NCBI GenBank assembly: GCA_048887225.1
Contig: JBHLJY010000027.1
Location: 1 to 29,663 of the forward strand
Source: Candidatus Hodarchaeota archaeon
GTDB lineage: Archaea > Asgardarchaeota > Lokiarchaeia > Sigyniarchaeales > SOKP01
Length of the DNA: 29,663 nucleotides
Direction: 5' to 3'
Under the pieces are notes generated by a model. The model was not told the DNA's origin. It did no database searches and was given only the letters and a program-made list of their open reading frames with translations. Below are positions 3,579 to 6,452 of this stretch, in pieces. Both the position numbers and the translations under genes were made by a program. The number at the start of each line of letters is the position of its first letter. Positions within the stretch are counted from its first letter, which is position 1.

Positions 3579-5105
3579 ATGAAAATGAAAAATATTGAAT
3601 TTCTCTCTAAAGATGAAATCGAAAATATTCATTCAGCAACTTTAGAATTATTGTCAACCGTAGGCATTAAAATAGATGATGAAGAAGTTCGAACCCTTTT
3701 CAGCGAAAATGGTGCAGAAGTAGAACACGATACGAATTTTGTTAGAATTCCTGAAGATCTAATAAAGCAACAATTAAAAACTGTTCCAAATTCATTTAAA
3801 CTATACGGACGTGATGGGTCATTTAATTTTGAAGTAAACACCTATAGTACTAAATTCGCAACAATAGGTACGCCAGTGAAAATGTATGACCCAAATCATA
3901 AAAAGGGGATAAGAAAAACCACATTAGAAGACAATATTAAACAAATCCGGGTAGTGGATAGTTTAGAACATATTAATAATTCGCATGTTGATGTCTGGCC
4001 TGGCGATATTAAATTTACTACTGTGCATGTACATTGTATCTATCAGTGGGCCAAAAATACACGTAAACCATATGGACTCGGTTGTTTAGGCAAGATTGCG
4101 AGCCAAGATATGATAGATATGATGTCAATTATTGTCGGGGGTGATGATGAATTAATTAAAAATCCTCGCTTGGTAGGATTTATGAATCCAACTAGTCCAT
4201 TGCATCTACCTAAAATCATGACAAATGGCTTTAAAATATTTAATAAATATAAACAACCAGTAATAATCGCTCCAGAGGCACTTGCAGGTACTTCTGCTCC
4301 AGTTACCTTAGCAGGATTATTAACTCAGACAAACGCAGAAATCTTAGCAAGCGTGATTTTATCGCAGTTAAATAATCCGGGAGCGCCTGTATTTTTTGCT
4401 ACAGTCTCTCATGTAACTGATATGCGCTCAGGAAATGATGCCTTAGGAGGTGTTGAGACGGGACTCATTACGGCAGGGATTGCTCAGTTAGCACGATTTT
4501 ATAATATTCCTTCAAGAGGACCAGGAGGAGTTACTGATTCAAAATGTTTTGACCTTCAAAACGGTTTTGAGCGATATCAAACATTGATGTTGGCAGCACA
4601 AGCAGGAATAAATTACATTACGTGTGCTGGGACTTATGAAGCTACTTTATTAGAAGCACTTGAACTTCTTGTATTAGATGATGAATTAGCAGGAATGGTA
4701 TTAAGAGCACTTGAAGGTATTAATGTAAATGAAGACACTATAGGATTGGGAGTCATTAAAAAAATCGCGACAAGCACTAAAAAGGGCGTAACTTTCCTTG
4801 GAGAAAAGCACACACGTGAGTATATGAGAAAAGAATTATATATACCAAAACTCGTTAATAGATATAGACGAAGTACTTGGCGCAAGAAGGGATCTAAAGA
4901 TATCATCGCCGTAGCAACGGAAAAAGTAGAAGAAATCCTTAGAAATTTTACCGAATATGAGTTGCCAGCAGAAATAGATGCAAAATTAAAAGCTTTGATA
5001 AAAAAAGTGGATGAAAGAACCTTTGATTTCTACAAAAAAGCAGAAGGTATAACTGCTGATAGCATTACCATTGATAGCATTGAATTTAAAGGAGAAAATA
5101 GTTAA
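3579..5105 (+). CDS. MttB-superfamily corrinoid methyltransferase, non-pyrrolysine type (paralog of 1294..2811)
   Basis: 508 aa, preceded by SD AGGAGG. It shares long identical blocks with the first copy (APVTLAGLL, QLARFYNIPSRGPG, KCFDLQNGFER, AGINYITCAGTYE) and has Val at the Pyl position. Confidence 0.93.
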   Translation: MKMKNIEFLSKDEIENIHSATLELLSTVGIKIDDEEVRTLFSENGAEVEHDTNFVRIPEDLIKQQLKTVPNSFKLYGRDGSFNFEVNTYSTKFATIGTPVKMYDPNHKKGIRKTTLEDNIKQIRVVDSLEHINNSHVDVWPGDIKFTTVHVHCIYQWAKNTRKPYGLGCLGKIASQDMIDMMSIIVGGDDELIKNPRLVGFMNPTSPLHLPKIMTNGFKIFNKYKQPVIIAPEALAGTSAPVTLAGLLTQTNAEILASVILSQLNNPGAPVFFATVSHVTDMRSGNDALGGVETGLITAGIAQLARFYNIPSRGPGGVTDSKCFDLQNGFERYQTLMLAAQAGINYITCAGTYEATLLEALELLVLDDELAGMVLRALEGINVNEDTIGLGVIKKIATSTKKGVTFLGEKHTREYMRKELYIPKLVNRYRRSTWRKKGSKDIIAVATEKVEEILRNFTEYELPAEIDAKLKALIKKVDERTFDFYKKAEGITADSITIDSIEFKGENS

Positions 5106-5281
5106 TTTGAATCAGACTCGATTTCATCATTATGAATACGATGAATTTCTGAAGGTTTTGCTCCACAAAAGGCTTGGAACTTAAAAAAATTTACATCTTT
5201 CTGACACGATGGACAGTGATAAATACCAGGATCTTTATTTTCAAAAATATAATAGCATTCCTTACAAATTGCGTATTTCAT
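5102..5281 (-). CDS. 59-aa zinc-ribbon-like microprotein (CxxC-x13-CxxC-x12-C)
   Basis: Hand translation: MKYAICKECYYIFENKDPGIYHCPSCQKDVNFFKFQAFCGAKPSEIHRIHNDEIESDSN. It is just under the 60-aa ORF-track minimum. Its stop overlaps the convergent mttB stop, a TATA-like TTATTAAA lies about 22 nt upstream, and it is paralogous to 6089..6202. Confidence 0.8.
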   Translation of the reverse strand: MKYAICKECYYIFENKDPGIYHCPSCQKDVNFFKFQAFCGAKPSEIHRIHNDEIESDSN

Positions 5282-5400
5282 GATTAAAGAATGGAATTAG
5301 AGTTTTAATAATTTGATTTGATGATTTAAAAGAAATTTTCAATTTTTAGTGGCATTTAATAAATTATTTTAAGAAAAATTATACTATCCATAAATATTAT

Positions 5401-5415
5401 AAAAAATTGAAAAAA
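5401..5415 (-). terminator. Possible archaeal oligo-T terminator after the SECIS
   Basis: The minus strand reads TTTTTTCAATTTTTT at the 3' end of the SECIS hairpin. Confidence 0.35.
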
Positions 5416-5484
5416 CCCAGTACCGTTGCGAGGCAGTCATCGGGCGTCTCATTTTTTTACGCACGATTCATTCTTTTCTGGATT
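5414..5484 (-). promoter_or_regulatory. SECIS-like element (eukaryote/Asgard type) in the 3' UTR of the selenoprotein gene
   Basis: Minus-strand RNA: AAUCCAG aaaaga AUGAA UCGUGCGU AAAAAAAUGAG ACGCCCGA UGAC ugccucgcaacggua CUGGGUU. It has a 7-bp helix I, an AUGA.../..GA tandem-GA core, an 8-position helix II (7 pairs plus one U-C mismatch) and an A-rich apical loop. It starts 5 nt after the stop of a gene with an in-frame TGA and is a GC-rich island in AT-rich DNA. Confidence 0.82.
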
Positions 5485-5489
5485 TAAAG

Positions 5490-6008
5490 CTATAATTTTT
5501 TTTCGATTGCATCGATTAATGATTCTATTGGAGGTCTATCTTCTTTATTTCCTATATATTGCCACACAACGATTCCCTCCTTATTAATTAGGAATTTAGA
5601 TGGAATTGCGTGGTTTACCTGAAATTGATCGTGGTCAGGATGTTCTTCCGTTAAATATACATTATAGGATTTTGTAATCTTAGCACCTCGATCTGCTATA
5701 AATTGAAAAGGAATTTCATATCTCTCATGCAATATTTTTAATTTTCTTGGACTATCAACAGCGATTGAAATTAATTTTACATCGCGCTTTTCCAATTCAT
5801 TAAAATTTGGTATTAAAACACTCTTAAAATGTTTTTTACAATGCGCTCACCAATTTCCCCTAAAAAAGTCTATTAACACTCCTCTATGATTTTTAAGTAA
5901 ATTTGATAGACTTATTTCGTTTTTATCGATGTCTAAAGTTTCAAAATTTGGTGCTTTAGTTCCTATTGTGAGTCCCTTTTTTGGAGTTGAAATATGTTCT
6001 TCGGTCAT
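5490..6008 (-). CDS. Peroxiredoxin-like (AhpC/TSA, thioredoxin-fold) selenoprotein with a UxxC motif, 172 aa
   Basis: The ORF-track entry 5490..5795 is only the C-terminal part. The frame extends to ATG 6008 through a single TGA (5849..5847, codon 54): MTEEHISTPKKGLTIGTKAPNFETLDID...VLIDFFRGNW-U-AHCKKH. The TGA occupies the first Cys position of the FxRGxWCxxC redox motif, and the N-terminus (LTIGTKAPNF) is typical of AhpC/TSA proteins. Confidence 0.92.
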
Positions 6009-6088
6009 TAATCAACATATACATCTTAAGAAATTTAAAGAATATGACTATAAATTGTTAAAAATTCTTTTAATCATTAGTAAAGCTT

Positions 6089-6202
6089 CTAACATTTAAA
6101 AGTGAATTCAAAAAAATAAGTAATTTTTTTACACTGAGAGCAATAATAATATCCATCTTTATCATGGTTTAATAAAAATCCACATTTTTGACATACAATC
6201 AT
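6089..6202 (-). CDS. 37-aa zinc-ribbon-like microprotein (CxxC-x13-CxxC-x12-C)
   Basis: Hand translation: MIVCQKCGFLLNHDKDGYYYCSQCKKITYFFEFTFKC*. GAGG SD lies 4 nt before the ATG. Cys spacing is identical to 5102..5281 and the GxYxC and FFxF motifs are shared. Confidence 0.78.
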   Translation of the reverse strand: MIVCQKCGFLLNHDKDGYYYCSQCKKITYFFEFTFKC

Positions 6203-6452
6203 AATTCCTCGAAAAATAGATATTTTTCAATCATTTAAATGTTAATCTTATATTTTTAAGATTAGACTATAGAATTTTTTTATACTTTTTTCCTATAGTT
6301 TTCCTAAACAATATGGTAAGAATGATTAATAGCTTAAAACATGGTTTTTATAAGAGTTAACTTTATTATCAATGTCATTTTATGAATTATTTACATTATC
6401 ATAACTAAATGAAGTAGAAATAATTACTGTTTTGTAAAAGAACATATAATAG

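Follow-up and report, generated by a model that had tools for sequence, protein, structure and literature searches.

Prx-like (PrxL) selenoproteins, which carry one selenocysteine (Sec) in a UxxC redox box or two in a UxxU box and contain no cysteine beyond that box, were described together with a eukaryote-like selenocysteine insertion sequence (SECIS), the lokiSECIS, whose features are an AUGA motif, a 9-bp stem, an 11-nt loop and a GA motif (Mariotti et al. 2016, PMC4989117), and they have later been surveyed across the Asgard archaea (Huang et al. 2024, PMC11227280). The first of these studies listed five selenoprotein families for Loki, the second seven for Asgard archaea, found by homology to known ones, and a 2026 review (PMC13188914) counted 11 archaeal families; we found no Sec-terminated zinc-ribbon microprotein family in these published lists, the main text of the first two papers does not mention zinc or zinc-ribbon neighbours of PrxL, and full-text searches for zinc-ribbon or zinc-finger selenoproteins in archaea or Asgard brought up nothing relevant. 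Here we describe a locus in a 29,663-nucleotide stretch of a Candidatus Hodarchaeota archaeon genome (contig JBHLJY010000027.1, positions 1 to 29,663; hereafter the window), in which a prxL gene lies on the minus strand between two paralogous zinc-ribbon microgenes, A and B, that together span positions 6202..5102. PrxL and the lokiSECIS are themselves already known, and the new part is the flanking microprotein family; microgene A belongs to an apparently undescribed family of archaeal selenoproteins, of which the window seems to hold a cysteine form. Genomes (G), loci (L), genera (g) and families (f) are referred to below by our own numbers where they have to be told apart.

The terminal residue of gene A

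Gene A (6202..6089, minus strand) is an open reading frame (ORF) for a 37-aa zinc-ribbon microprotein that closes with the stop codon TAG. Its four ribbon cysteines are laid out as C4-x2-C7-x13-C21-x2-C24, and the protein ends in Lys36 and Cys37, the latter encoded by TGT, so that the gene terminates in AAA TGT TAG. M1, C4, C7, C21, C24 and K36 are invariant in A-type alignments, as are Gly17/Tyr18 and Phe30, and the window copy conforms to this pattern. We tabulated the terminal codons of 22 A-type copies. Seventeen end at Lys36, and in every one of them (17/17) the lysine codon is followed by TGA and then directly by TAA or TAG; the other five, from the window and four g11 genomes, have TGT (Cys) at codon 37 and then TAA or TAG. 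The stop codon of the related B- and C-type genes, described below, is by contrast mostly TAA.

The distribution of SECIS elements was examined with a covariance model trained on PrxL elements alone. A SECIS was detected on the same strand behind all 17 TGA-form A genes, with scores of 42-62 bits (E 1e-7 to 1e-11) and at a distance of 28-48 nt in 16 copies and 138 nt in the copy of G003, whereas none was found behind any of the five Cys-form genes, including that of the window, where the search was run with filters off. An 18th A-type match (G036) lies at the start of a contig, where the A gene is cut off. The A-type element is present also in eight loci without any PrxL (L025, L029-L032, L040, L043 and L044), and where PrxL does come after a TGA-form A there is a second SECIS, belonging to PrxL. 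The spacer between A and PrxL measures 78-109 nt in the Cys forms (80 nt in the window, 6009..6088 on the minus strand, without a SECIS) versus 134-278 nt in the eight TGA forms that stand directly upstream of PrxL, and it is inside this longer spacer that A's own SECIS sits. When the 18 A-type elements were aligned with MAFFT, independently of the model, covariation was seen in nine of the nine main-helix pairs; 89.5% of the cells are paired in the main helix and 82.5% over the whole structure, as compared with 27-45% in slid controls.

Selenoprotein families that include Cys orthologues are typically recognised by just such a pattern, in which TGA alternates with TGT at one aligned codon and a SECIS is accordingly present or missing. 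That the TGA/TGT switch tracks the SECIS in this manner argues that A of the window is the Cys form of a Sec-ending microprotein, and we consider it very probable that it is a Cys orthologue of a Sec-terminated family. The fifth cysteine of A is marked as a functional residue because the same position is filled by Sec in relatives, and, although surplus to the ribbon, it is probably the working residue of the protein. The initial annotation of this stretch, made from the sequence alone, had already singled out the fifth Cys as surplus and potentially reactive; the TGA with its dedicated SECIS in most A orthologues strongly supports this, but the residue is not Cys throughout the family, being Sec, Asp or absent in other members.

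The A gene of G158 (L141:5353-5469, minus strand) has two in-frame TGA codons, one of which replaces the fourth zinc Cys (C-P-L-U). The family sequence goes on past this internal TGA to the final K-TGA-TAA, and the gene has its own SECIS at 5324..5267; the internal Sec may be a zinc or iron ligand.

Gene B and the microprotein family

Gene B (5281..5102, minus strand; stop codon TAA) is an ORF for a 59-aa paralogue of A. The two proteins align without gaps at 32% identity (BLASTP E 3e-7, single comparison) and share the spacing C-x2-C-x13-C-x2-C-x12-C, as had been proposed when the pair was first noticed; Cys39 of B and residue 37 of A fall in the same column of the ungapped alignment, 12 residues after the last ribbon Cys. 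Proteins of the A subtype consist of 36 residues up to the invariant Lys plus one codon. The B subtype (50-62 aa) has the tail F-x-F-x-A-F-C-G-A-K-P, with C6, C9, Y21, C23, F32, G40 and P43 invariant in its alignment, and includes a sub-paralogue, B2, that reads L-F-D-G-x-K-P and hence has Asp at the fifth position, and the C subtype (36-45 aa) has an acidic tail without a fifth Cys. By type, therefore, the fifth position is Sec (17/22) or Cys (5/22) in A, mostly Cys in B with Asp in B2, and absent in C; no Sec codon occurs at the homologous Cys of B in the loci examined. In the B copy of G019 (L033:1916-2104, plus strand) the fourth ribbon Cys is changed to Tyr (C-E-N-Y) and the fifth is kept (F-C-G-G-K-P), and close relatives of this genome (G074 and G099) have Cys at the fourth ribbon position.

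In an alignment of 35 family copies the four cysteines are invariant and Gly19 and Phe32 nearly so. Mean pairwise differences at codon positions 1, 2 and 3 amount to 0.39, 0.31 and 0.54 in A and to 0.33, 0.26 and 0.52 in B; the third position is the most variable in both genes, which points to purifying selection on the protein, in agreement with the initial annotation. A and B are almost certainly expressed genes. A profile of the family matches 100 of the 134 other genomes of f1, the Lokiarchaeial family to which the window belongs, and none of the 21 genomes of the sister families f2-f5; f6 and f7 give weak matches (E 1e-4 to 7e-6). A search with B also found relatives in most f1 genomes, and a public metagenome protein is 88% identical to it. 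The microproteins, for which the initial annotation had allowed that conserved homologues might be lacking, do have homologues in about 100 genomes. The genome of the window (3.27 Mb, 98% complete) has exactly two profile matches, A and B, and among 1.84 billion protein representatives there are only 62 at E up to 1e-3, roughly half of which are 31-61 aa long.

The AlphaFold model of B is a four-strand ribbon with a predicted local distance difference test score (pLDDT) of about 90 for residues 1-30 and a tail of low confidence. Foldseek found no significant match to this model in PDB, the best hits being generic ribosomal zinc ribbons and a truncated rubredoxin (E ~0.4-1), and neither A nor B has a match above cut-off in Pfam or NCBIfam; sequence and fold searches give a generic zinc-ribbon or knuckle likeness. 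The ribbon would be a structural Zn(Cys)4 scaffold. Prediction of a complex of A, B and two Zn gave interaction scores (ipSAE) of 0.03-0.04, values that count neither for nor against binding. The rubredoxin (PF00301) and rubrerythrin domains were considered as a home for A and B and rejected, as there is no Pfam match, rubrerythrin scores 15 bits against a cut-off of 200, and the Foldseek match to rubredoxin has an E-value of ~1. The rubredoxin-like character once suggested for the two microproteins is not supported; the spacing between their knuckles is also 13 residues and not ~29.

PrxL and its SECIS

The prxL gene (6008..5490, minus strand) encodes a 172-aa thioredoxin-fold Prx-like selenoprotein in which Sec54 corresponds to the TGA at 5849..5847. 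The product matches AhpC-TSA (1.5e-23) and Redoxin (1.6e-18) in Pfam and, below cut-off, a ResA-like family in NCBIfam (1.8e-16). It has the redox box W-U-A-H-C with a single in-frame TGA and no other Cys, and combines the AhpC/TSA-Redoxin fold, the U-x-x-C/U box and the lack of further Cys with a lokiSECIS in the 3' untranslated region (3'UTR), all of which place it in the PrxL family. The TGA is kept, as UxxC or UxxU, in all 117 PrxL homologues examined. The source names of PrxL homologues are those of Lokiarchaeota, Helarchaeota and Promethearchaeota metagenome-assembled genomes, by which the lineage belongs to Lokiarchaeota/Promethearchaeota.

The covariance model (R1) was built from 58 PrxL 3'UTRs of other genomes; its training alignment shows compensatory changes in 12 of 14 pairs and has 89% of the cells paired versus 24-54% in slid controls. 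R1 identifies the prxL SECIS at 5473..5416 on the minus strand (69.6 bits, E 5e-16), complete with AUGA, a 9-bp helix, an 11-nt A-rich loop, GA and a small GC hairpin, and with filters off it finds no other SECIS within 4900..6400. Rfam gives no SECIS match in the region and holds no fitting model, and the minimum-free-energy fold of the 96-nt 3'UTR is indistinguishable from that of shuffled sequences (z -0.34); the element is established by the covariance model and not by folding energy. The cassette reported in the initial annotation, with a 37-aa ORF, a UxxC Prx-like selenoprotein, a SECIS and a 59-aa ORF in this order on the minus strand, is in this way recovered in full, and the three genes are indeed absent from the standard ORF listing, for which the microgenes are too short, while prxL is interrupted by its TGA.

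Paralogues of the UxxC and UxxU forms often stand in tandem, each with a SECIS (L067, L071, L075, L089, L102, L103, L118 and L124, in g11 and g3), and UxxU forms are spread over several clades of the PrxL tree. Public full-length PrxL entries (P0065, P0067, P0072 and P0078) have W at the Sec positions (W-W-x-x-C/W), TGA having been read as Trp. One of these, P0067 (233 aa), was considered as a fusion of A with PrxL and rejected, being a read-through artefact in which TGA is taken for W and the frame continues from the region of A, upstream, into PrxL; none of the PrxL homologues in the size ranges of 94-301 and 302-2000 residues was found to be fused to a zinc ribbon.

Linkage of A, PrxL and B

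The surroundings of 117 PrxL genes, 111 in f1 and six in f2, were compared over about 2.5 kb of flank each. An adjacent family microgene on the same strand accompanies 17 of the 111 f1 genes, and A-PrxL-B or variants of it are found in seven of the nine PrxL-bearing f1 genera (g1, g3, g5, g7, g9, g11 and g12). The order is A-PrxL-B in the genome of the window (G000), G001 and G003, and A-PrxL-B, A-PrxL-B-B2 or A-PrxL-B2 in G019, G074, G099 and G108; A-PrxL is seen in G004, G011 (where the contig ends right after PrxL) and G013, A-PrxL-C or PrxL-C-B in G020 and G015, A-PrxL with a degenerate B-like gene 1.6 kb downstream in G030, related orders in G158 and G159, and PrxL-B with A 4 kb away in G017. 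In the genome of the window the only two family copies flank the sole PrxL, within ~200 nt, and because the only copies adjoin the only PrxL the pairing is more than would be expected by chance.

At least four distinct sets of neighbours are found on the two sides of the trio. In the window it has a 2-hydroxyacyl-CoA dehydratase operon on its left, an arrangement that recurs only in G030, and a non-Pyl MttB gene on the other side; G001 and G003 have genes for a Ras-family GTPase and a J-domain protein; g3 has RtcB; and in g11 the left flank carries a leucine-rich-repeat gene and a glutamate dehydrogenase gene and the right flank AlaX. The leucine-rich-repeat, glutamate dehydrogenase and AlaX genes do not travel along with the trio. 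When the PrxL tree is rooted with f2, most basal f1 branches contain linked genes, and the linked and unlinked labels change 8 times versus 16.2 times in shuffles, which fits an ancestral A-PrxL-B order with later duplication and relocation of PrxL. The idea that genomes without A and PrxL have lost the use of Sec was rejected, as G006, G012, G016, G024 and G033 keep 2-4 SECIS elements each.

Divergently from A, many loci have a block made up of genes for a FAD-linked oxidase, an SCP2-like protein, glutamate dehydrogenase and a leucine-rich-repeat protein (L025, L029-L033, L039, L040 and L043, in g2, g3, g10, g11 and g12), with a co-oriented gene for an AlaX-type editing protein after B or B2; in some loci a Ras-family GTPase gene takes the place of the leucine-rich-repeat gene next to A. 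In G001 and G003 a gene for a 117-aa J-domain (DnaJ) protein separates PrxL from B and has the opposite orientation (L026:9284-9637 and L027:2736-3089, plus strand), and a J-domain gene lies upstream of A in G013 (L042).

Other features of the window and its genome

A TTTAAAT box, read from the sequence only, is found ~30 nt before the prxL ATG. Two T runs right 3' of the SECIS (5401..5415, minus strand) are a possible archaeal terminator between prxL and B, and similar runs follow most PrxL SECIS elements in the loci compared. On the plus strand, convergent with the trio, an MttB-family (non-Pyl) gene occupies 3579..5105, and the stop codon of B overlaps its end. Inside this gene Rfam reports a weak PYLIS_3 match at 4530-4629 (plus strand; 25.5 bits against a gathering score of 38); the gene has no in-frame TAG there, and the match is probably coding-sequence similarity rather than a functional element.

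Another SECIS in the same genome (G000:C14:30220-30279, plus strand; locus L149; 46 bits) is directly preceded by a frame of ~105 codons with a hydrophobic helix, an acidic stretch and a G-G-G-U-G-C motif. The frame is unlike SelD, VhuU, VhuD, HdrA and PrxL, and it may be another unannotated selenoprotein.

Possible functions of the trio

We favour the explanation that A-PrxL-B is a lineage-specific three-gene module of one Lokiarchaeial family and that the microproteins are dedicated redox partners of PrxL, an explanation that we take to be slightly more likely than not; that A, PrxL and B are functionally coupled at all we hold to be probable by a similarly narrow measure. A thiol/selenol relay is the form of coupling that we prefer, although we put its likelihood somewhat below even. 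In such a relay the role of the Zn(Cys)4 ribbon would be that of a scaffold holding out a single reactive chalcogen, 12 residues past the last knuckle Cys. The reactive residue of A would be its very last one, with UGA-UAA/UAG decoded by means of the dedicated downstream SECIS in most species and Cys used instead in the window, and that of B would be Cys39, followed by the conserved G-x-K-P tail. Bond exchange, by way of selenenylsulfides or disulfides, would then take place between the U-x-x-C box of PrxL, itself devoid of a resolving Cys, and both residue 37 of A and Cys39 of B, and the two microproteins would be dedicated partners of PrxL, either as substrates or as electron shuttles. Each of the three products is predicted to have a single reactive Sec/Cys site. 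The most specific version of this proposal, in which A and B are diffusible Zn-ribbon carriers tipped with Sec or Cys that form mixed Se-S or Se-Se bonds with the U-x-x-C/U box, and would represent both the first partners of PrxL and a new class of archaeal micro-selenoproteins, is somewhat more doubtful than the relay as such.

A number of observations weigh against this explanation, and most of them bear on whether the genes are coupled in any way. As many as 94 of the 111 PrxL genes of f1 lack a linked microgene; in g2 and most of g11, A-SECIS-B is retained, often followed by B2 and then alaX, with PrxL located elsewhere, so that A and B also occur as a pair without PrxL; none of the six PrxL genes of f2 is flanked by a microgene; and g4 has the C type only and no PrxL. 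The synteny with PrxL that was expected from the initial annotation holds for the seven genera named above and breaks down in these other cases. Co-occurrence at the level of genomes is weak (both in 69, microgenes only in 32, PrxL only in 17 and neither in 17, the relatives being non-independent). The wider block of unrelated leucine-rich-repeat, glutamate dehydrogenase and AlaX genes is conserved around the pair in many genomes, and B-B2 lies directly upstream of the co-oriented alaX in other genomes; the synteny may in part be inherited order. Each of the three genes possibly has its own promoter, T runs follow the SECIS, and a common transcript is putative. Taken to their end, these points would mean that A and B act alone or with other partners and that their position around PrxL is the legacy of a slowly rearranging region. 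We nevertheless judge such an absence of coupling quite improbable, given that the trio is intact in at least four surroundings without being accompanied by the leucine-rich-repeat, glutamate dehydrogenase and AlaX genes, that the sole two copies in the genome of the window flank its sole PrxL, and that a single reactive Sec/Cys site in all three products would be an unlikely coincidence.

A difficulty of another kind for the relay is the Asp at the reactive position of B2, which, with G-x-K-P retained around it, suits a metal ligand better than a redox residue. It raises the prospect of a metal-handling module, the chief alternative to the relay, in which the fifth position (Sec, Cys or Asp) would be a ligand, A, B and B2 would bind or pass a soft metal (e.g. 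Fe, Ni, Zn or Hg) alone or together, and PrxL would at most keep the ligands reduced. The retention of the fifth Cys in the G019 copy of B that lost the fourth ribbon Cys is in line with this, as is the discussion of the bacterial Sec-ending proteins SaoC and UXX-star as metal binders (PMC13188914), and a gene for a CxxCxxCC metal-chelating domain recurs a few genes away in several loci. Two weak resemblances of B, one in NCBIfam to the end of rubrerythrin that is rubredoxin-like (E 0.014, under the cut-off) and one in Foldseek to a rubredoxin with a truncated loop (probability 0.60), point the same way, but the iron-protein matches are under every threshold. Moreover, the loci compared have no consistent neighbour among genes for metal transporters, chaperones or resistance, and the neighbour that persists most through the rearrangements is a thiol-disulfide oxidoreductase-like protein; metal handling appears unlikely to us. 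Still less can be said for zinc ribbons associated with translation or RNA, according to which A, B and C would bind RNA or the ribosome, in the manner of the small Zn-ribbon proteins found on archaeal 30S subunits, and might be tied to tRNA or to Sec decoding. Among proteins of solved structure the microproteins match best, by sequence, an HVO_2753-like small zinc-finger chain (9fhl and others; uS14 is another chain; E 2.4e-5), NCBIfam PRK14890, a 'putative Zn-ribbon RNA-binding protein', is matched at E 6e-5 to 6e-4, below cut-off, and AlaX and RtcB are among the neighbours. These matches, however, are limited to generic CPxCG knuckles, of which those families have four and not two, a terminal Sec has no known RNA-binding role, and RtcB is convergent rather than co-oriented, all of which makes this explanation very improbable.

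The A family would add to the archaeal selenoproteins, and it has been invisible to standard gene calling because its genes are 37 codons long with the UGA next to the stop. Its Loki-type SECIS would act very near a UGA that stands directly before the real stop, and the family thus offers a natural test case for termination versus Sec insertion in the archaeal lineage nearest to eukaryotes. Many Asgard archaea have PrxL, which is uncharacterised, and conserved neighbours with one reactive Sec or Cys each provide a testable hypothesis about its partners; if the relay proves true, it will give the PrxL family its first physiological partners.

Comparison with known systems

The PrxL of the window is like published PrxL proteins in its AhpC/TSA fold, its U-x-x-C box, the lack of other Cys and its lokiSECIS; the flanking microgenes and their Sec form are what the published PrxL lists do not include. 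The small zinc-finger families HVO_2753 and PRK14890 are akin to A and B in size class, CPxCG-type knuckles and ribbon fold. They nonetheless have four C(P)xCG motifs, as opposed to the two CxxC pairs of A and B, which score 16-23 bits against cut-offs of 61-80, and no Sec or Cys at a fifth position has been reported for them; membership of A and B in either family was rejected on account of motif count and scores.

Thioredoxin 2 (TrxC) of E. coli has an N-terminal zinc finger with two CxxC motifs fused to a thioredoxin fold. The locus is similar in combining a 4-Cys zinc finger with a CxxC-type thioredoxin-fold protein, the zinc finger coming first, and differs from it in that the two are separate genes; the match between TrxC and PrxL is weak (E 1e-4, below cut-off), and A-PrxL as a TrxC-type fusion was rejected, no fused homologues having been found.

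In gene architecture, A comes closest to SaoC (Cys-Sec-COOH, NF040734) and UXX-star (NF041114, NF041211), which are likewise small, have the UGA at the 3' extreme of the ORF next to the true stop and exist also in Cys forms. All of them are truncated or missed in annotation because the UGA adjoins the true stop at the extreme 3' end. The likeness is one of architecture only, as NF040734, NF041114 and NF041211 give no match at E up to 1 in NCBIfam, and A stands apart in its archaeal host, in having a eukaryote-like SECIS in the 3'UTR where theirs is a bacterial hairpin within the ORF, in its 4-Cys zinc-ribbon body, and in having Lys rather than Cys before Sec.

Mammalian thioredoxin reductase has a C-terminal Gly-Cys-Sec-Gly tail, the mobile Sec of which carries redox equivalents between a buried site and the substrates. 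It is a large flavoenzyme in which Sec pairs with an adjacent Cys, whereas A has no neighbouring Cys in its tail; with this difference kept in mind, the thioredoxin reductase tail serves as our working analogy for A, whose terminal residue would act in the manner of a mobile C-terminal Sec.

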